DNA of 64,000 bases. It comes from a bacterium (lineage in GTDB: Bacteria; Patescibacteriota; Patescibacteriia; UBA1558; S5-K13). The stretch is taken from positions 4,951-68,950 of the forward strand of contig DAORGW010000001.1 in NCBI GenBank assembly GCA_035356975.1, in the 5' to 3' direction. This document shows, one piece after another, positions 10,539 to 47,313 of this stretch; within the stretch, counting starts at the first letter, position 1; the number at the start of each line of letters is the position of its first letter. Under the pieces are notes generated by a model. The model saw only the letters and a list, made by a program, of their open reading frames with translations, was not told the origin of the DNA and searched no databases. The position numbers and the translations under genes were made by a program.

Positions 10539-11222
10539 TTAGTCTTTTTTGAATAATAAATAGGCAATTGAGAAATTCATTATTAGTATAAATATGGGCC
10601 CCAACCAGAAAAATTTAAATATATTTATATGTATTAAATACCAATCAAAGTAAAATCCCAAAATAAAAGACACCATTGTTCCAAATATTACAATAAATAC
10701 TCTTTTTTTATTAATACCTTGTGAATTTATATATTTCATAACTAAAATATAATACGCATAGAAAAGCATTAATGAAAATAAAATCCCATATATTAAATGC
10801 AATGTTGAATCTGGTATATATGATATTTGATTATTTTCTATGTAGATGTTTGTAACCATTTGATCAGAAAATAAAATATAAAGAGTTATTATAGATAGAA
10901 TAAATAATAATGCTTTAAACACTATTAAAATTTTATTTTTTACTGTATATAAAAAATAAACTGAAAACATAAAAAAATTTATTAAAATTAGTGTGCCCGT
11001 TGCATATGTTAGATTACTCAAAATTTTATAAATACTATTATTTTTTATAACAGAAAGTCCAGCTATATTAATTGACCAAAAAAAAGCACTAATACACAAC
11101 AAGGAAAAATACCTTGAAAATTTTTCCCTACCGTTATTTTTTTTCATTATTATAAATCCGATAGCAATATTTATTGTTGCAGTTAAGAAGATTACCCCAA
11201 ACTTTAACCATTGTATATTCAT
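10539..11222 (-). CDS. Polytopic membrane protein, hypothetical
   Basis: About 6-7 hydrophobic segments and no recognisable soluble domain. Confidence 0.4.
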   Translation of the reverse strand: MNIQWLKFGVIFLTATINIAIGFIIMKKNNGREKFSRYFSLLCISAFFWSINIAGLSVIKNNSIYKILSNLTYATGTLILINFFMFSVYFLYTVKNKILIVFKALLFILSIITLYILFSDQMVTNIYIENNQISYIPDSTLHLIYGILFSLMLFYAYYILVMKYINSQGINKKRVFIVIFGTMVSFILGFYFDWYLIHINIFKFFWLGPIFILIMNFSIAYLLFKKD

Positions 11223-11389: not shown

Positions 11390-12310
11390 TTATTTATTTA
11401 CTTGAAATGTTGTATCTCCTGACTCAAAAAATTTTACAATTTGATTTGCAGAAGCAAGTCCAGCATTTATGTTTGCCTCAGATGTTTCAGCTCCCATTTT
11501 TTGTGGACTTGCAAAAACACGGTTTCCAAATTTTTCTTTGAGTTCACTGTAGTTATCTCCTGCAATATCAGTTATATATTTTAGATCATTTCTTTCTTCT
11601 AGGATCCTCATTAATTCTTCATCATTTATAACTTCTTTTCTTGCCGTATTAATTATACAAGCACCATTTGGTAATTTTGATAATATTTCATAGTCAATTG
11701 ATTTTTTTGTCTCATCATTTGCAGGAATATGAAGCGATAAATAATCTGATTTACTATAAAGTTCATCTACTGAGTTTGCAAATGTTACACCATCTTTTTC
11801 CATTACATCTATTGAAACATTTTTATCATATGCAATTATGTTCATTTGAAATCCTTTTGCAATGCGAGCTACTATTTTTCCAATATTTCCATAAGCATGA
11901 ACCCCTAATGTTTTTCCTTTTAATTCAATTCCCGTTCCTGGTGTAAAACAGTTTCTTGACATATAAATCATAAATCCAATTGCAAGCTCTGCAACTGCAT
12001 TAGAGTTCTGTCCTGGTGTATTCATTGCTACAATATTTTTTTCATTGCATGCATTTAAATCTAAGTTATCATATCCAGCGCCAGCACGAACTACAATCTT
12101 TAGATTTTGTGCGTGACTAATAAGTTCTTTTGTAACTTTATCGCTTCTTACAATTAAAGCATCTGTATCAGAAATTGCAGTGTACAATTCTTCTGGGTTT
12201 GTATATTTTTCAAGAAGAGAAAATTCATGGCCGGCATCAATTATAATTTTTTTAATTCCATCTACTGCAATAGGAGCAAATGGTTTTTCTGTCGCTACTA
12301 ATATTTTCAT
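11390..12310 (-). CDS. serA: D-3-phosphoglycerate dehydrogenase / D-isomer 2-hydroxyacid dehydrogenase (short form lacking ACT)
   Basis: NAD-binding GVHAYGNIGKIVARIA motif and the 2-hydroxyacid dehydrogenase family pattern. Adjacent to serC. Confidence 0.7.
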   Translation of the reverse strand: MKILVATEKPFAPIAVDGIKKIIIDAGHEFSLLEKYTNPEELYTAISDTDALIVRSDKVTKELISHAQNLKIVVRAGAGYDNLDLNACNEKNIVAMNTPGQNSNAVAELAIGFMIYMSRNCFTPGTGIELKGKTLGVHAYGNIGKIVARIAKGFQMNIIAYDKNVSIDVMEKDGVTFANSVDELYSKSDYLSLHIPANDETKKSIDYEILSKLPNGACIINTARKEVINDEELMRILEERNDLKYITDIAGDNYSELKEKFGNRVFASPQKMGAETSEANINAGLASANQIVKFFESGDTTFQVNK

Positions 12311-12314
12311 ATGT

Positions 12315-13388
12315 TTATGTGTTTAATTTTTCAAATTCTTGCATTGTTTCAATTAATGCTTTTACACTCTCAAGAGGACACGCATTATATAGTGAAGCAC
12401 GGAAACCACCAACTGATCTGTGGCCCTTTATTCCCACCATTCCACGTTCAGTTGCAAATTTTAAGAATTCCTCTTCTTTTTCTTTGTATTCATCAGCCAC
12501 TACAAAACATATATTCATTATTGATCTATCTCCTATCTCGGCTGTACCTTTAAACATTTTGTTTCTGTCAATTTCATTGTATAGAAGCTCTGCCTTTTCT
12601 TTGTTGATTTTCTGTATTTTTTCTAGACCACCAATATCTTTTAACCATTTTAATGTTTCGTTCATTACGAAAATTGAAAATACTGGCGGTGTATTAAACA
12701 TAGAGCCATCTTTAATGTGTGTTCTGTAATCAATCATAGCCGGGAGATGTCTGCTTACTTTTCCGAGTATTTCTTCTTTGATAATAACAAAAGTAACACC
12801 AGCTGGACCAACATTTTTTTGTGCGCCACCGTATATCATTGCATATTTTGAAACATCAACCGGTCTGCTCATTATGTCAGATGACATATCAGCCACTAAA
12901 TTACATGGAACGTTCATATCCTCATGAATTTCTGTTCCATAAATTGTATTATTTGTTGTTATATGAAAATAATCTAAATCATCCGCTACTTCATATCCTT
13001 TTGGAATGTATGAAAAATTTTTGTCAACTGATGTTGCAACACATATTGTTTCTCCTATTCCACTGGCTTCTTTGAGGGCTTTTTTTGCCCACTCTCCTGT
13101 TTCTAAATATCCAGCTTTTTTTTCAAGTAGATTCATCGCCAAATAGCTAAATTGTGTACTTGCTCCCCCACCCAAGAATAAAATTTTATAATTATCGGGA
13201 ATGTTTAACAATTCTTTCCATAAATTTCTACATTCTTCCATAACAGTTTCCCATTCTTTTGAGCGATGAGAAATTTCTATTACAGACATACCTGTTCCGT
13301 TAAAATCTTCTAGTGCTTGAATGGTGGCTTTTATGGCTTGTTTTGGAAGCACTGCCGGTCCTGCATTAAAATTATGAGTTACTTTCAT
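12315..13388 (-). CDS. serC: Phosphoserine aminotransferase
   Basis: N-terminus [11 protein letters not shown] is the SerC hallmark. 357 aa. Confidence 0.9.
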
Positions 13389-13490
13389 AAATTTTTTTTA
13401 TTTTTTAATTTTTATAAATTTTTAATCGCCTTTATTTTATTATTTATAGATTTTATTGTCAATAATATTTGTTTTCCGATTAACTTTAAA

Positions 13491-13506
13491 ATGGTATAAT
13501 AATCAT
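13491..13506 (+). promoter_or_regulatory. Extended -10 element (TGgTATAAT) ending about 6 nt before the radical-SAM ATG. The mRNA may be leaderless.
   Basis: aaaatggtataataatcATATG. No Shine-Dalgarno between the -10 and the ATG. Confidence 0.3.
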
Positions 13507-14532
13507 ATGCAAGAAGCATTATTATATAAAAAAAATAAAGATAAAAGCGTAAATTGTGAACTTTGTTTTCATTTTTGTAAAATCAGTGAATCTTGTACTG
13601 GAATTTGTGGAGTGAGGAGAAATATTGAAGGAAAATTGTATTCTTTAAATTACAATAAAATAATCGCAAAAAATATTGATCCAATTGAAAAAAAACCTTT
13701 TTTTCATTTTTTGCCAGGAACTTTATCATATTCAATCTCTGCAATTGGATGTAATTTTGAATGTTTAAATTGTCAGAATTGGCAAATCTCTCAAATCCAA
13801 AAAATTGAGAAATTGGACAATGAATTTCCAGGTGAATTAATAAAACCACAACAAATTCTTCAAGAAGCTATTAAATCAAACAGTGGTTCAATCGCATATA
13901 CTTATACTGAACCAACAGTTTTTTTAGAAACAGCGCTTCCGATAATGAAATTGGCTAAAGATAGTAATTTAAAAAATATCTGGGTTTCAAATGGATTTAT
14001 GAGTAAAAAATGTATTGATTTAATAATACCCCATCTTGATGCAATAAATATTGATTTAAAATTTTTTAATGATGAGAAATATAATAAAATAGCAAAAGCA
14101 AAACTAGATCCGATTTTAGAAAATTTAATTTATTTAAAAAAGAAAAAAGTTTTTATTGAAATTACAACACTTATTATTCCAGACGAAACAAATACACTAA
14201 ATCAAATTGAACAGATTGCAAAATTTATAAAAGAAAATTTAGGGGTAGATACTCCGTGGCATGTTTCAAGATTTTCCCCAGAAATTTCATATAAGCTATT
14301 GTCAAAATCCTCAACATCGTCAGAAGAATTAGAAAGTGTATATAAAATTGCTAAAAAAGTCGGATTAAATTATATTTATATTGGCAATATTGCAACAGAT
14401 TTGCGAGAAAATACTTATTGTCCTGAGTGTGAAATTTTAAATATAGAACGTCAGGGTTACATAATTTCAAGAAGTGATAAAAATGGACATTGTCAAAATT
14501 GTAATTATTATTTAAATATTATAGATAAGTAA
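13507..14532 (+). CDS. Radical SAM enzyme of the AmmeMemoRadiSam-system type (PFL-activase-like)
   Basis: MQEALLYKKNKDKSVNCELCFHFCKISESCTGICGVRRNIEGKLYSL followed by CNFECLNCQNW (CxxxCxxC). This matches the characteristic N-terminus of that family. The track ORF starts at 13456, but the family alignment suggests M18 (13507). Confidence 0.75.
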   Translation: MQEALLYKKNKDKSVNCELCFHFCKISESCTGICGVRRNIEGKLYSLNYNKIIAKNIDPIEKKPFFHFLPGTLSYSISAIGCNFECLNCQNWQISQIQKIEKLDNEFPGELIKPQQILQEAIKSNSGSIAYTYTEPTVFLETALPIMKLAKDSNLKNIWVSNGFMSKKCIDLIIPHLDAINIDLKFFNDEKYNKIAKAKLDPILENLIYLKKKKVFIEITTLIIPDETNTLNQIEQIAKFIKENLGVDTPWHVSRFSPEISYKLLSKSSTSSEELESVYKIAKKVGLNYIYIGNIATDLRENTYCPECEILNIERQGYIISRSDKNGHCQNCNYYLNIIDK

Positions 14533-14533
14533 A

Positions 14534-15955
14534 ATGAAGAAATTTCTATTAATTGTATTAATTGTTTTTACTTTTTGTATAATAAAAACATCTTCACAGG
14601 AATATGATTCTTTGTTTAATCCTAGTTTTATTATTTCTGATTATGAATTGGAAGATTATTCTTCAATGAATGTTTATGATATACAAGCTTTTTTAAATAG
14701 ACAAGCAGGACAATTAAAAAATTATATTACCAAAGATCCAGATAGTGGAAGATTGATTTCAGCGGCTGAAATAATTTACAACGCATCTCAAAAATATAAA
14801 ATTAATCCAAAGTATTTAATTGTTTTGCTTCAAAAAGAACAAAGTTTAATTACAGATCCAAATCCAACACAAAAACAATTTGATTGGGCAATGGGTTTTG
14901 CTATTTGTGATAGCTGTGCCATGAATGATCCAGCTTTGCAAAAATATAAAGGATTTTATAATCAGGTTTTTTATGCCGCACAAAGGAACAGATTTTATAT
15001 TGAAAATAAAGATCTTTTTTGGTTATTTCAAGTGGGTAGAGAATATAATATTGACGGAATAAAAATAAGTCCAATAAATCAAGCAACTGTTAATTTGTAT
15101 AATTATACCCCACACTACAATGGGAATTATAATTTTTGGAAAATTTGGCAGAAGTGGTTTACAAAAAAATATCCAAATGGTTCTATAATAAAAGCACACG
15201 GTTCTCCCGGTGTATGGATAATTGAAGAAGGCTATAAAAAACCATTTATAACGTGGTCGTCATTTATAAGTAGATATAAAAAATCTGATATAATTGATGT
15301 TTCATATAGTGATTTAGAAAAATATCCAATTGGTGATCCTATAAAATTTGAAAATTATTCATATCTTCGAACACCAGACGGAAGTTTCTATATGGTTGAT
15401 AATGATAAGTTAAGAAAATTTGAAACACGTGAAACCGCTAGATATTTTGGAGTCAATCCTGAAGAAGCTATAAATGTGTCTATCGATGATATTAATTACT
15501 ATCCAAAAGGAGAGAACATAACACTAAATAGTTTATATCCAAATGGAATTATTTTACAAAATATAAAAGATCAGCGGATTTATTATGTAAAAGATGGTAA
15601 AAAATCTTTAATATTAAACAATGATCTTTTAAAGATAAATTATCCAAATCAAGCAATAACAAAAGTAAGTGATGATGAAATTGATAAACTAGAGTCTGCT
15701 GACAATGTAATTATAAGGGATGGAGTTTTGGTAAAGTCACATAACAATAATGCAGTTTATTTTATATCAGATGGATTTAGAAAGCCCATTTTAAGTGAGG
15801 ATATATTTGAAAAATTAGGTTTTTCATGGGGAGATATAATTAGTATATCTGATAATATTTTAAATTTAAATAAATTGGGTGATGCAATAACAATTATCCA
15901 AGAAAATATAAACGAAAATGAACTTTTGCCAACACAAGAGTCTCATCCACTATAA
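14534..15955 (+). CDS. Secreted protein, hypothetical. Signal peptide, then a N-terminal domain with faint lysozyme/glucosaminidase-like resemblance and four repeats of about 22 aa.
   Basis: MKKFLLIVLIVFTFCIIKTSSQ signal. Repeats include GVWIIEEGYKKPF, SFYMVDNDKLRKF, RIYYVKDGKKSLI and AVYFISDGFRKPI. Starts 2 bp after the radical SAM stop. Confidence 0.5.
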   Translation: MKKFLLIVLIVFTFCIIKTSSQEYDSLFNPSFIISDYELEDYSSMNVYDIQAFLNRQAGQLKNYITKDPDSGRLISAAEIIYNASQKYKINPKYLIVLLQKEQSLITDPNPTQKQFDWAMGFAICDSCAMNDPALQKYKGFYNQVFYAAQRNRFYIENKDLFWLFQVGREYNIDGIKISPINQATVNLYNYTPHYNGNYNFWKIWQKWFTKKYPNGSIIKAHGSPGVWIIEEGYKKPFITWSSFISRYKKSDIIDVSYSDLEKYPIGDPIKFENYSYLRTPDGSFYMVDNDKLRKFETRETARYFGVNPEEAINVSIDDINYYPKGENITLNSLYPNGIILQNIKDQRIYYVKDGKKSLILNNDLLKINYPNQAITKVSDDEIDKLESADNVIIRDGVLVKSHNNNAVYFISDGFRKPILSEDIFEKLGFSWGDIISISDNILNLNKLGDAITIIQENINENELLPTQESHPL

Positions 15956-15960
15956 AAAAT

Positions 15961-16773
15961 ATGAAAGAAATTTATACAATTTTTTCACCACACAATCCTC
16001 TACTTATTTCTAAAATAGGTAAAGAGCACTCTGATAAGCTGAAAAAAACAATTACAGTATGGAAATATATAAGACAAAAAATTTACAGCATTGATCCTCA
16101 AAAAATTATTATAATAATGCCTGAATATAATAAGTTCAATAATATTTCCATAAATCAATGTGAGACATATAAAATAAATTTTAAAGAATTTGGTGATTTA
16201 TCTATTGAATTTGAGGTAAGAGGTGATTTAGATTTCTCAACTAGATTAAAATATTTTTTACGAAAAAATGATTTTCCTGTTTCTGTTTTTTCAGATACAG
16301 AAATAAATTATAAATCATTTGTTCCTTTGTATTATTTAAATAAATATCACACATCTTCTAAGGGCTTTGAAAAGGATATGAAGCACGAAGAAACAAATAC
16401 AGAGTTCGTTGTTATTAATTGTTCCCTAGGTGACACATCACAACACCTAAGATTTGGAGAATTATTATCAGATTTTATGGAAGAGACTAACGAGAGAATT
16501 GTTTTAATAGCTTGTGGAGATTTTGCTAAAGAAATAAAAGAAGAAAATATTTCAGAAGTAGATAGTTTATTACAAATTTTTATTGATTCTATCAAAAAGA
16601 GAAAATATGATAATATTTTTGATCATTATGAAAAATTTAAAAATGGAAACTACATGAGTCTTAAACCATTTGCTGTAATTTCACATAATTTATCTCACCA
16701 AAAATCAATACCAAAAATTTTATCACTCGACAGAGAGTTTAATGAAATTTATTTAACTTGTGAGTTCGAATAA
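15961..16773 (+). CDS. Hypothetical protein, weakly Memo/LigB-superfamily-like (possible AmmeMemoRadiSam protein-B homolog)
   Basis: IFSPHNPL resembles Memo IIAPHAGY, and IACGDFAKE resembles Memo SSDFCHWG. Several metal-ligand His residues appear absent. The match is weak. Confidence 0.3.
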   Translation: MKEIYTIFSPHNPLLISKIGKEHSDKLKKTITVWKYIRQKIYSIDPQKIIIIMPEYNKFNNISINQCETYKINFKEFGDLSIEFEVRGDLDFSTRLKYFLRKNDFPVSVFSDTEINYKSFVPLYYLNKYHTSSKGFEKDMKHEETNTEFVVINCSLGDTSQHLRFGELLSDFMEETNERIVLIACGDFAKEIKEENISEVDSLLQIFIDSIKKRKYDNIFDHYEKFKNGNYMSLKPFAVISHNLSHQKSIPKILSLDREFNEIYLTCEFE

Positions 16774-17596: not shown

Positions 17597-18613
17597 TTAT
17601 TTATACCAATTATACAATTCCTCGCTTTTAATATTTACTATGTTTTTAAATATATATTTTCTTTTTTGAAATATTTTTGAAATCAATTTTAAATTTTTAA
17701 AAAAGAAAGCAAGGGTTTTTGTCTCGAAAAATAATATATAAATAAATTTTTTAAATTCATAAATAAATAAATGAAAAAAACATTTTATAAAATTTGCGCA
17801 AAATTCATTTTTTATTAAAAGGTAAATATGATTTCTATATGAATATTCATTTACCCAAGAAGATCTATTTTTTCTATTTTTTATTGTATTTGTTCCCTTT
17901 TTTATAGATCTATCGTGATAAGCAATTACGTTTGGTAAAAAATAGCATTTATAGCCAGCTAGTTTCATACGAAATGCTAGATCAACATCTTCTTTGTAGG
18001 TAAAAAAATCTTCGTCAAAATATTCATTATTTATTTTTATGCTTTCAAGTGCCTTTTTAGAATATATGGGACACGCAGCTGATGTTCCAAAAACTTCTTT
18101 TACCTGATTGAATTCATTATTATTTTCTTCTAATTGTCCGATGTCTATAACTTTGTGATTTTTAAACACTTCAAATCCACAAGTATCAATTATATTTGTT
18201 TTCCCATATTTGTCTGCATTATATGGATCTTCATTATTAAATTCCCAATGAAATAATTTAGGAGCAATTACACCTATTTGATTTTTATTTTTATTATTAT
18301 CCAAGAAATTAAAAGCATTTTCTAAAAAATTAGGCTCCATTATTATATCTTGATTTAAGCACAATATATAATCAGATTTAGCCCAGGCAAATAATTTATT
18401 ATGAGCTGGTGCAAAGCCAATATTTTCTTTATTTTTAAATATTTTAAATTGCGGAAAGTTGTGTTCAATAATTTCAATTGTACTGTCATTTGAATTATTA
18501 TCAAAAATATTTACCTCATAATTTTTAAATGTTTGTTGTAATATAGAATTAATACAATGTTTAATGTATTTTTCTCCGTTCCACGTAACTAAATTTATGC
18601 TTATTCTAGACAT
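17597..18613 (-). CDS. Glycosyltransferase family 2
   Basis: ISINLVTWNGEKYIKHCINSILQQTFKNYEVNIFDNNSNDST. Confidence 0.8.
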   Translation of the reverse strand: MSRISINLVTWNGEKYIKHCINSILQQTFKNYEVNIFDNNSNDSTIEIIEHNFPQFKIFKNKENIGFAPAHNKLFAWAKSDYILCLNQDIIMEPNFLENAFNFLDNNKNKNQIGVIAPKLFHWEFNNEDPYNADKYGKTNIIDTCGFEVFKNHKVIDIGQLEENNNEFNQVKEVFGTSAACPIYSKKALESIKINNEYFDEDFFTYKEDVDLAFRMKLAGYKCYFLPNVIAYHDRSIKKGTNTIKNRKNRSSWVNEYSYRNHIYLLIKNEFCANFIKCFFHLFIYEFKKFIYILFFETKTLAFFFKNLKLISKIFQKRKYIFKNIVNIKSEELYNWYK

Positions 18614-18911
18614 ATAAATTTTTTATTTCTTCATAAAGATCTTTCCATTTAGGATTTTCTTTCCTAATTAGGCTAATTTTTTTCTCTCTTCTCCATCTTT
18701 TGATTTGTTTTTCTCTTTCTATCATCGCATATACATCGTTATCACTTTCAAAATATACTAATTTTTTGCATTTGTATTTTTGTGTAAATCCAGAAATTTT
18801 TCCAGATTTATGCTCTAATACTCTTCTAAAAATATCATTTGTGAAACCAACATACAATACTCCACTACGACTAGCCATAATATAAACAAAGTAATATTTT
18901 TCATACTTCAT
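18606..18911 (-). CDS. GIY-YIG nuclease superfamily protein (UPF0213-like)
   Basis: YFVYIMASRSGVLYVGFTNDIFRRVLEHKSG is the GIY-YIG motif. 101 aa. Overlaps the start of the GT2 gene by 8 bp. Confidence 0.8.
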   Translation of the reverse strand: MKYEKYYFVYIMASRSGVLYVGFTNDIFRRVLEHKSGKISGFTQKYKCKKLVYFESDNDVYAMIEREKQIKRWRREKKISLIRKENPKWKDLYEEIKNLYV

Positions 18912-36512: not shown

Positions 36513-38207
36513 TTATAGACTGCATTTGGATTTATCAGAATACTTTGTGTGCAATAATTTTTTTGATAATTTTCCAAGTGGTTTTCCCAAAAATTCCATG
36601 TAAATTTTTATAATATTTGGGTTTTTATGGGCTTGTCTGAATTCCAAAGATTTATCTTCTTCATAAGTTGCTTTTGCTCTTTTTCGTATTATTTCCATGG
36701 TTGTTGGCTTTGGTTGTCCTCCACCACCTATGCATCCCCCTGGACATGCCATAATTTCGATAAAATGATACTTTTTAGGCATTTTCTTTATGATTTCAAG
36801 TATTTTACGGGCATTTGATAAACTGTGTATTACAGCTAAATTTAGGGTTGTATTTCCGATTTTTATACTTGCTTCTCTGAATCCTGAATCACCTCTTAAA
36901 ATTTTAAAATCTATCTTTGAATATTCTCTGCCAGTCATAAAATAATGAGCTGTTCTTATGGCTGATTCCATAACTCCGCCAGATGAGGCAAAAATTGCTC
37001 CTCCACCAGAACCCGGCCCCATTGGATTATCAAATTGTAATTTCCTTTCATCTTTTAGATCAATTCCAAAACTTTTTATGAGTTTCGCGCACTCTCTTGT
37101 TGTTATTACAAAATCAACATCACGGACTCCGTCAACCGACATTTCATCACGACATGATTCATATTTTTTTGCTGTGCATGGCATTATACTTACTAGTATA
37201 ATATCGCGTGGATTAATTTTTGCTTTTTGTGCATAATAAGTTTTTATTAGTGCACCAAACATTTGGTGGGGTGACTTACAGCTTGATAAGTGATTTAATA
37301 ATTCAGGATAAAATGTTTCAATAAAATTGACCCAGCCAGGACAGCATGATGTTATAAGTGGCAAATATTTATTTTGTTTGATTCTCTCAATTAATTCACT
37401 GGCTTCTTCCATTATTGTAAGATCAGCTCCGAAATTTGTATCAAAAACTTTTTTAAAGCCAGCCTTTTTAAGTGCGCCTACCATTTGTCCGGTTACGGAA
37501 ATCCCAGGCTCTAATCCGAATTCTTCTCCCAGTGCAACTCTAATTGAGGGAGCGGTTTGTGCTATTACATGTTTCTTTGGATCTTTTAATAATTCTTTAA
37601 TTTCTTTATAGAATTCTTTTTCCCTGATTGCATTTGTTGGACAAACTAGTGAACACTGACCACAACCAACACAGTTTGTGTCAGCCAATTTTTTATTTAA
37701 TGATTTTGAAACAACGGTTGCGTTAGCTCTGTTTTTATAAGAAATTGCATTTACTGTTTGAAGTTCCCTACATTTTTGTATGCATCTTCCACATAAAATA
37801 CATTTTTCAAAATCCATTACAATATCATGAGAAGAGTCGTCTAATTCTTCTGAAATATGTGGTTTAAATTTTAATTCCTCAATGTCTGGTAAATTTTCTA
37901 ATTTTAACCATTTTCTAAATTCTTCTTCTTTTTCAAAATTACATCCTATTAATTGAGCATTTATTTTTCTTTGTTTCTGTATCTCAGGATTATTTGTCTC
38001 AATTATCATGCCCTCACAAATTTCGTTATTACAACTCGTTATAAATTTTCCGTTAGCCATAACTACACATATGCCACATCTCCCCTCTGACCTTAGATCT
38101 GGATGGTAACAAAGAGTGGGAATTTTTATTCCACTTTTTAGAGCCGCTTCAAGTATCGTGCATTTTTTATTTATTTTTATTTTTTTACCGTCAATCGTTA
38201 TTTGCAT
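36513..38207 (-). CDS. [FeFe]-hydrogenase catalytic subunit (HndD/HydA-like) with N-terminal 2Fe-2S and 4Fe-4S domains
   Basis: H-cluster motifs TSCCPGW, MPCTAKKYE and EIMACPGGCIGGGGQP. Confidence 0.85.
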   Translation of the reverse strand: MQITIDGKKIKINKKCTILEAALKSGIKIPTLCYHPDLRSEGRCGICVVMANGKFITSCNNEICEGMIIETNNPEIQKQRKINAQLIGCNFEKEEEFRKWLKLENLPDIEELKFKPHISEELDDSSHDIVMDFEKCILCGRCIQKCRELQTVNAISYKNRANATVVSKSLNKKLADTNCVGCGQCSLVCPTNAIREKEFYKEIKELLKDPKKHVIAQTAPSIRVALGEEFGLEPGISVTGQMVGALKKAGFKKVFDTNFGADLTIMEEASELIERIKQNKYLPLITSCCPGWVNFIETFYPELLNHLSSCKSPHQMFGALIKTYYAQKAKINPRDIILVSIMPCTAKKYESCRDEMSVDGVRDVDFVITTRECAKLIKSFGIDLKDERKLQFDNPMGPGSGGGAIFASSGGVMESAIRTAHYFMTGREYSKIDFKILRGDSGFREASIKIGNTTLNLAVIHSLSNARKILEIIKKMPKKYHFIEIMACPGGCIGGGGQPKPTTMEIIRKRAKATYEEDKSLEFRQAHKNPNIIKIYMEFLGKPLGKLSKKLLHTKYSDKSKCSL

Positions 38208-47108: not shown

Positions 47109-47199
<91 letters not shown>

Positions 47200-47238: not shown

Positions 47239-47313
47239 TGGCTGGGGAGGTAGGGTTCGAACCTACGAATGTCGGCTTCAAAGGCCGATGCCTTACCACT
47301 TGGCTACTCCCCA
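47239..47313 (-). tRNA. tRNA-Gln (anticodon UUG), U1-A72, CCA encoded
   Basis: The reverse complement reads TGGGGAGTAGCCAAGTGGTAAGGCATCGGCCTTTGAAGCCGACATTCGTAGGTTCGAACCCTACCTCCCCAGCCA. Anticodon stem TCGGC/GCCGA with loop CUUUGAA. Confidence 0.8.

Follow-up and report, generated by a model that had tools for sequence, protein, structure and literature searches.

A probable derived AmmeMemoRadiSam locus with an embedded gene for a predicted cell-wall hydrolase in Patescibacteria

What is the role of a gene for an exported protein that lies inside a cluster whose other products are predicted to act within the cell? This question is raised by three consecutive genes at positions 13507–16773 of a 64,000-nucleotide stretch of patescibacterial DNA (contig DAORGW010000001.1, positions 4,951 to 68,950), which as a whole is called the window below. 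MEMO1 and AMMECR1 are human disease-linked proteins. In prokaryotes, their relatives and a radical S-adenosylmethionine (SAM) enzyme together make up a conserved system of three genes. The components of this AmmeMemoRadiSam system are described by the models TIGR04335 (protein A, or AMMECR1), TIGR04336 (protein B) and TIGR04337 (radical SAM enzyme). The first window gene encodes a clear member of the last family, at 296 bits, and relatives of the locus carry the full set in the order radical SAM, LigB-like, AMMECR1. The window differs from this arrangement in three respects: no AMMECR1 is found within the 64 kb, the protein-B homologue fails TIGR04336 and has lost its metal site, and a gene for a predicted exported, peptidoglycan-hydrolase-like protein lies between the radical SAM and protein-B genes. 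With high confidence, the locus derives from an AmmeMemoRadiSam cluster and has a wall-hydrolase gene embedded in it. Its narrower description as a lineage-specific, reduced form of the patescibacterial cluster, very probably one operon, is likely, if less firmly so.

The association of AMMECR1 with radical SAM and ring-opening-dioxygenase-like proteins, including fusions, has been described together with a predicted function in RNA base modification (Balaji and Aravind 2007, PMC2034487). PMC7159879 and PMC7694686 cite a survey that covered the superfamily in 2019. For the AMMECR1/Memo/radical SAM system of prokaryotes, no functional study was found in the searchable literature. Likewise, the full-text literature yielded no link of AMMECR1/Memo systems to Patescibacteria or to peptidoglycan hydrolases, a context that the 2019 survey might list. 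The locus is not a new system; the presence of a wall-enzyme gene inside the cassette and the repeated occurrence of dead LigB-like copies beside that gene are apparently undescribed. The features of the locus, all on the + strand, are as follows.

13389..13506, +, intergenic region upstream of the radical SAM gene, shared with a divergent serC-like gene; contains TATAAT at 13495–13500 (sequence reading)
13507..14532, +, radical SAM gene, 341 aa (TIGR04337, Pfam Radical_SAM, cysteine motifs, dN/dS)
14534..15955, +, middle gene, here called mid, for a predicted exported or membrane-anchored cell-wall protein, 473 aa (homologue family, AlphaFold model)
14534..14599, +, putative signal peptide or N-terminal membrane anchor of mid, aa 1–22 (sequence, model, alignment)
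14606..15175, +, predicted lysozyme-superfamily, GH73-like glycosidase domain of mid, aa 25–214, with the codon of the candidate catalytic Glu102 at 14837–14839
15176..15898, +, four tandem repeats of mid, about 60 aa each, aa 215–455, beta-rich, EccB/PlyCB-like and putatively wall-binding
15961..16773, +, gene for a LigB-fold protein with a degenerate active site, 270 aa (PF02900, model, residue table)

The three proteins of the locus

The radical SAM protein had been placed, in an earlier reading of the sequence only, in the AmmeMemoRadiSam family and not among ordinary PFL activases, and the profile scores bear this placement out. The protein reaches 296.3 bits against TIGR04337 (cutoff 220), compared with 63 bits against the PFLA model TIGR02493 (cutoff 231.75), 41.4 bits against TIGR02494 (cutoff 174.35) and 58.5 bits against the YjjW model, which is far under the cutoff of that model. 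Its CX3CX2C motif is intact. The cysteines of the motif (C82, C86 and C89 in window numbering) and those of an N-terminal cluster (C17, C20, C24 and C34) are invariant in the alignment of the family (A3), and the C-terminal CxxC pairs C305/C308 and C329/C332 are nearly so. The start of the gene is set at ATG 13507 and not at the upstream TTG 13456, because the homologues align from that invariant methionine. All three genes are under purifying selection, with ratios of nonsynonymous to synonymous substitution (dN/dS) of about 0.1 like their neighbours: compared with the closest relative, L171, the values are 0.095 for the radical SAM gene, 0.10 for mid and 0.12 for the third gene, and the flanking glycosyltransferase genes give 0.11–0.13. 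The intact enzyme would presumably still cleave SAM and carry out the cytoplasmic radical reaction of its family.

The middle protein has, as was proposed earlier, 473 residues and an N-terminus of the signal-peptide type. This N-terminus, MKKFLLIVLIVFTFCIIKTSSQ, consists of a basic KK n-region and a hydrophobic core of 14 residues, and its hydrophobic character is kept in 18 of 18 aligned family members. The AlphaFold model (mean pLDDT, the predicted local distance difference test, 87.4) comprises an N-terminal hydrophobic helix at residues 2–16, a low-confidence linker, a helical domain (aa 25–214), four beta-rich repeats and a short disordered tail. The repeats are mutually homologous, with pairwise hhalign probabilities of 93–99%. 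Their number, four, agrees with the earlier description; the unit length does not, since each unit spans 58–62 residues and the 22 residues given previously are its conserved core.

The identity of mid is accessible only by fold comparison, which points to a lysozyme-like fold of the GH73 type followed by repeats resembling EccB and PlyCB. The search of its profile against the sequences of the Protein Data Bank (PDB) gave nothing meaningful, and the 18 family members compared with Pfam at E ≤ 10 gave no GH73 match and weak EccB matches in four of them, with a best E of 0.0026. In the model, the helical domain shares the fold of GH73 enzymes such as pneumococcal LytB, Acp of C. perfringens, AtlE, Atl and SagB of S. 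aureus, and FlgJ. It differs from them in having no detectable similarity to Pfam Glucosaminidase (PF01832) and in its conserved motifs, which are its own. The motifs LQKEQS, DWAxG, KGFxxQV and YxYTPH are invariant across the family, and by this invariance Glu102, in the first of them, is a candidate for the catalytic acid. The two cysteines of the protein (CDSC) are not invariant. In the model, the repeats of about 60 residues have the same small beta-rich fold as EccB of the ESX (type VII) system and as the wall-binding domains of PlyCB and enterococcal endolysins. Elsewhere, the N-terminal domain of mid is fused to Peptidase_S11 (a D-Ala-D-Ala carboxypeptidase), to PG_binding_1 and to a PcsB coiled-coil. 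Because of its modelled fold and these fusion partners, mid is predicted to be an exported, peptidoglycan glycosidase-like enzyme with wall-binding repeats. Such a protein would be exported through Sec, bind the wall by its four EccB/PlyCB-like repeats and cut glycan strands by the GH73-like domain and Glu102, most likely as a housekeeping autolysin.

The mid protein has more than 1,237 homologues and is present in at least 575 GTDB species genomes, and its N-terminal domain alone forms about 4,750 clusters at 50% identity. The family is 40–60% identical across Falkow-, Kuenen-, Komeili-, Uhr-, Magasanik-, Buchanan- and Veblenbacteria and Parcubacteria, and the closest named relatives of the window protein belong to the Patescibacteria, or Candidate Phyla Radiation (CPR). 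It defines a very large patescibacterial family of probable cell-wall enzymes for which no Pfam or NCBIfam match is found. Among the proteins with the N-terminal domain, some carry six to eight matched domain stretches each (P0278, 1093 aa; P0280, 1116 aa; P0301, 824 aa), and in P0362 (1033 aa) a protein kinase domain lies N-terminal to it. The invariant KGF motif had suggested mid as a glycyl-radical substrate; this candidate was dropped, as the protein is extracytoplasmic and the idea had no other support.

The third protein matches Pfam LigB (PF02900) with 71.9 bits (E 6e-20, gathering score 26.3), and its model has a pLDDT of 92.9. The model superposes on the class III extradiol dioxygenases HpaD, aminophenol dioxygenase, DesB and LigB with template-modelling (TM) scores of 0.70–0.78, and TK2203 is also among the superposed enzymes of this class. 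Memo1 reaches 0.56–0.60, and its structures rank below all the dioxygenases. The fold of the LigB/Memo superfamily, for which faint motifs had been noticed before, is therefore present, and the protein is closer to the dioxygenase branch than to Memo1. It has no match to TIGR04336 at E ≤ 1 and none to Memo PF01875, and it scores 16.7 bits against MEMO1 NF001987 (cutoff 295). Its orthologues in other Patescibacteria score 30–46 bits against TIGR04336, whose cutoff is low (26), and the protein is the orthologue of the protein-B partner of the patescibacterial AmmeMemoRadiSam clusters. A fusion of LigB-like and AMMECR1 parts occurs among the homologues (P0037).

The earlier suspicion that metal ligands had been lost proved correct as well. 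The orthologous partners in Patescibacteria conserve H11, H55, D116, S-H190, D204 and E231-C232. The register was checked by profile alignment to the HpaD structure 8iq8, in which these positions correspond to the His, His, catalytic His and Glu motifs of HpaD. We take such LigB-type positions to form a 2-His-1-Glu iron site. Of H11, H55, H190 and E231 the window protein keeps only H11, and it has E55, N116, K190, Y231 and M232; two of the three iron ligands and the catalytic histidine are lost. Unlike the dioxygenases whose fold it has, it thus contains no equivalents of His55, Glu231 and the catalytic His190. The whole clade of the window is similarly degenerate, whereas the signature H-H-D-H-E-C is intact in 46 of 65 partners outside it. 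Within the clade the former site varies (E/P/S at position 55, K/G at 190, P/L/M/S at 232), and H11, H162 and D187 are invariant or nearly so in the alignment of these proteins (A2). Since the site is lost and the gene is nevertheless kept by selection, the protein, which by its residues would be incapable of 2-His-1-Glu iron chemistry, is most likely a non-catalytic binding or scaffold subunit. A close structural match, the non-catalytic alpha subunit of aminophenol dioxygenase (8ihg_B, 3vsg_A), resembles it in the lost site.

Gene order among relatives

Gene order was compared in two surveys, one of 80 GTDB species loci centred on mid and one of 80 metagenome loci centred on radical SAM genes of the patescibacterial type. 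The order radical SAM, mid, LigB-like recurs in all close relatives, in which the third protein is down to 45% identical. In these relatives the whole neighbourhood is syntenic, and the shared order there therefore says little. Across the first survey, the LigB-like gene lies directly downstream of mid in 69 of 80 loci; of the 11 exceptions, two lie on truncated contigs. The gap between the two genes has a median of 14 bp and is at most 30 bp in 45 of the 69. AMMECR1 follows the LigB-like gene in 14 of the 80 loci, with hidden Markov model (HMM) scores of 211–268 bits, and the downstream proteins are named 'AmmeMemoRadiSam system protein A' by NCBI and JGI. A radical SAM gene of TIGR04337 is found within 5 kb upstream of mid in 17 of the 80, directly adjacent in eight and with clpB between in nine; all these neighbouring enzymes are members of the family (267–349 bits). 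Direct adjacency occurs in three further lineages (L030, L062 and L078). All four genes are present in seven of the 80 loci, among which L062 and L078 read radical SAM, mid, LigB-like, AMMECR1, priA, def, fmt. The link of the radical SAM gene to mid is looser than that between mid and the LigB-like gene.

The second survey shows the cassette with and without mid. In its closest loci (L091, L092 and L106) the order is radical SAM, LigB-like, AMMECR1, and mid is absent. In L096, L102 and L105 the radical SAM gene is followed by the LigB-like gene, and AMMECR1 lies a few genes further. Another group (L093, L100, L107 and L167) has the radical SAM gene, clpB and mid in this order, in part followed by the LigB-like gene. 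The LigB-like proteins of these loci retain the active-site signature, either in full or with a conservative D/E exchange. We conclude that the LigB-like gene is the protein-B-type component of the patescibacterial AmmeMemoRadiSam cassette and that, in a large subgroup, mid lies inside this cassette.

These comparisons change the place of AMMECR1 in the account of the locus. That the gene is absent is borne out within the 64-kb window, where a six-frame HMM search found no AMMECR1 and no LRGCIG motif. A further search found none on the large contigs of the clade among the best 120 of 7,986 AMMECR1 homologues, which is weak evidence. The accompanying claim, that the secreted protein occupies the place of AMMECR1, has to be given up: in the canonical order AMMECR1 comes after the LigB-like gene, and mid coexists with AMMECR1 in 14 loci. 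Therefore, mid is an insertion inside the cassette and not a replacement, and in the lineage of the window AMMECR1 is simply missing downstream. The clade of the window is the only surveyed group that combines an adjacent radical SAM gene with a degenerate LigB-like gene. Two readings of this combination are possible: the radical SAM enzyme now works without its canonical catalytic partners, or these partners are encoded elsewhere in the genome. From the loci of Falkow-, Kuenen-, Komeili-, Uhr-, Magasanik-, Buchanan- and Veblenbacteria and Parcubacteria, an older layout can be proposed that would have read radical SAM, optionally clpB, mid, LigB-like, AMMECR1, priA, def and fmt on one strand, optionally with ligT upstream on the other. 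The window's clade would have kept the radical SAM, mid and LigB-like genes, and lost AMMECR1 from the locus and the active site from the LigB-like protein.

The ligT element of this layout is a gene of about 185 aa for a LigT/2H phosphoesterase (PF02834, the 2',5'-RNA-ligase family), which in 13 loci of the patescibacterial type (L020:146–706, L030:3291–3884, L107:6325–6864 and 10 others) lies within 400 bp of the radical SAM gene, upstream of it and divergently transcribed. It is not found in the clade of the window, and the pairing is not universal. As an RNA-end-processing gene beside the radical SAM gene, it fits the old prediction of a system that acts on RNA. Many of the GTDB loci (L012, L013, L015–L017 and others) are titled 'uncultured Gammaproteobacteria bacterium'; their gene content and closest named relatives are patescibacterial, and the title is probably a placeholder label in the submissions.

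Meaning of the wall-enzyme junction

The persistence of gene junctions was compared in the same genomes. The junction of mid with the LigB-like gene is kept in 69 of 78 usable loci, compared with about 25 of 77 for clpB with mid and about 27 of 73 for the LigB-like gene with priA, and it is the most stable link of the neighbourhood. The pair survives at least three complete changes of its flanks, in the clade of the window, in L055/L056/L065/L084 and in L035/L046/L082. As the junction is kept through several rearrangements, co-expression of the two genes is probably selected. The active site of the LigB-like protein is also lost in L043/L045/L081 with L044/L054, in L066/L074/L079/L087, in L073 and in L071. 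To judge by the residues, this loss occurred independently in several lineages, the gene staying behind mid each time. The degenerate genes outside the clade of the window are always adjacent to mid and never have an adjacent AMMECR1. In total, 14 of the 45 intact-site loci have an adjacent AMMECR1, and none of the 24 degenerate-site loci does (Fisher p = 0.0013, uncorrected for phylogeny). This distribution suggests that AMMECR1 accompanies the catalytic function of the LigB-like protein and that its gene is held next to mid by a second function, which is not catalytic.

Several points speak against this line of argument or against the account of the locus as a whole. The survey loci are related by descent, and the counts overstate the independent support. 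In nine loci priA comes after mid and the LigB-like gene is absent, and LigB-like genes stand without mid in L091, L092 and others; each occurs without the other, and the two are therefore not obligate partners. The GH73 assignment of mid is a prediction from its model, since at the level of sequence mid matches neither GH73 nor any PDB chain, and the proposed co-transcription is drawn from gene spacing. AMMECR1 or an intact Memo/LigB paralogue could lie outside the 64 kb.

The junction may also reflect nothing beyond inherited gene order: the wall-hydrolase gene, with or without clpB, would have landed once between the radical SAM and LigB-like genes and stayed there in compact genomes, functionally unrelated to both. 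This explanation is somewhat unlikely, and it accounts naturally for the position of the pair within a block of housekeeping genes (clpB, priA, def, fmt) in most lineages, for the separate occurrences of its two members, for the rarity of a radical SAM gene within 5 kb of mid, and for the different sites of action, the wall enzyme being predicted to act outside the cell and the other two proteins inside. It does not readily account for a junction that is far more persistent than those with clpB or priA and that outlives three changes of both flanks. The site-less copies kept beside mid under purifying selection in several independent lineages are also hard to square with a catalysis-only role in an unrelated pathway. 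The sequence-only reading had proposed a closer relation, in which the secreted protein serves the radical SAM enzyme as a substrate or partner; it would, for instance, be modified post-translationally before export and take over from AMMECR1. This proposal found no direct support. The 1-nt gap between the two genes, their tight spacing across the clade and their adjacency in the three further lineages are in its favour, as is the relation of this radical SAM family to activases of glycyl-radical enzymes, which act on proteins. The coexistence of mid and AMMECR1, however, excludes replacement; clpB separates the two genes in at least nine loci, and most mid loci have no radical SAM gene within 5 kb; the neighbour to which mid is linked most tightly and most persistently is the LigB-like gene. 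Moreover, in L091, L092 and more distant relatives, members of this radical SAM family do without mid. The fold of mid is complete, conserved and glycosidase-like, and it has no obvious need of modification, while the CDSC cysteines vary. Such a role is very unlikely for mid, whether as direct substrate or as a partner that took over from AMMECR1, and direct biochemical coupling of the wall enzyme to the radical SAM enzyme is unlikely.

The natures of mid and of the LigB-like protein can each be read differently too. If mid were an EccB-like part of a type VII-like secretion or envelope machine, and not a hydrolase, its repeats and its N-terminal hydrophobic helix, which EccB likewise has, would be accounted for. 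EccB, however, has no glycosidase-like domain, whereas the repeats of mid are attached to one; the EccB model PF05108 does not match the window protein, and the likeness is confined to the repeats, which also match wall-binding domains of phage endolysins. No type VII secretion genes, and specifically no EccC-type ATPase or WXG100 genes, occur among the recurrent neighbours of the surveyed loci, and this idea is scarcely credible. The LigB-like protein, in turn, could still be an enzyme with a re-modelled site, for example around H11, the clade-invariant H162 and D187, for a different chemistry. The near-invariance of these residues, the dN/dS of 0.12 and the confident, intact fold agree with such a site. 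Positions 55, 190 and 232 vary within the clade as expected of a relaxed former site, TIGR04336 is not matched, and close structural matches include a non-catalytic subunit; a re-modelled enzyme is therefore quite improbable.

The preferred reading, a reduced AmmeMemoRadiSam cluster with an embedded wall-enzyme gene, leaves several degrees of functional connection. A pathway shared by the wall enzyme and the LigB-like protein is possible, although doubtful. It is unlikely that the patescibacterial system includes the wall enzyme as a genuine fourth component and that the LigB/Memo-like protein performs a further, non-catalytic job in connection with this enzyme. Such a job, equally uncertain, might be the control of production, folding or export of the wall enzyme, or the sensing of a molecule derived from the wall or a lipid carrier, and it would explain why dead LigB-like copies are repeatedly kept behind the wall-enzyme gene. 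Cell-envelope remodelling would then be the first concrete process to test for the Memo/AMMECR1/radical SAM system. The Memo gene contexts were reportedly extended toward nucleotide-base and isoprenoid modification in the PCAD-Memo survey of Burroughs et al. in JBC in 2019. In a large group of uncultured, ultrasmall bacteria, the AmmeMemoRadiSam cassette contains a peptidoglycan-hydrolase-like gene; this is a new clue to the role of the system and does not prove a link. Should the link be functional, it would direct experiments on the system to the cell envelope. Otherwise, the clade of the window still offers a naturally dissected form of the system: the radical SAM enzyme has been kept, and a catalytic protein B and, at least at the locus, AMMECR1 are missing.

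Transcription of the cluster and surrounding genes

The window has a GC content of about 27% and is strongly AT-rich, and nearly every gene lies on the - strand. The three genes at 13507–16773 form a + strand island between - strand genes, with a divergent serC-like aminotransferase gene on the left and a convergent GT2 glycosyltransferase gene on the right. The radical SAM stop codon ends at 14532 and the mid ATG is at 14534, leaving the gap of 1 nt, for which the earlier reading gave 2 bp; the mid stop ends at 15955 and the LigB-like ATG is at 15961, leaving 5 nt, in agreement with that reading. Tight spacing is also found in L003–L005 and L171, and the promoter/terminator scan of this AT-rich DNA found no terminator-like sites inside the cluster. 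Such spacing indicates that the three genes very probably form one operon. The sequence TGG-TATAAT, with its hexamer at 13495–13500, ends 6 nt 5′ of the radical SAM ATG; at 27% GC it is likely to be a chance match, and the promoter scan, with 36 sites found and 28 expected, is not significant and is uninformative at this GC content. The hexamer may be the operon promoter, in which case the mRNA is possibly leaderless. In the sequence no obvious Shine-Dalgarno motif precedes any of the three genes, and an Rfam search found no RNA elements near the cluster. At the other end, the LigB-like gene and the convergent GT2 gene overlap at their 3′ ends by 25 bp (16749–16773), as they do in L001 and L171. 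This overlap leaves no space for a terminator, and the two transcripts must therefore overlap.

The left flank differs among the closest loci. Between the gene of a HisKA_7TM-like membrane protein and the radical SAM gene, only the window has a serA-like (2-hydroxyacid dehydrogenase) and a serC-like (class-V aminotransferase) gene (11390–13388, -), while in L171 and L001 the HisKA_7TM gene directly precedes the radical SAM gene. The pair looks like a recent two-gene insertion. The HisKA_7TM-like protein itself (10539–11222, -) is 41% identical to its positional counterpart in L171, compared with 86–93% for the five other genes examined, and its dN/dS is about 0.5 compared with about 0.1. Such divergence points either to a surface protein that evolves fast or to replacement of the gene. 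On the right, a stand-alone open reading frame of 101 aa with a GIY-YIG nuclease domain (18606–18911, -) lies between a GT2 gene and the Wzy_C gene and shares 8 bp with the former. The window and L001 have this reading frame, which is absent at the same position from L171, L003 and L004 and may be a mobile or selfish element. Further away, a full-length [FeFe]-hydrogenase with ferredoxin-like domains (36513–38207, -) is consistent with an anaerobic, fermentative lifestyle, and two adjacent tRNA genes lie at 47113–47199 and 47242–47313 (-).

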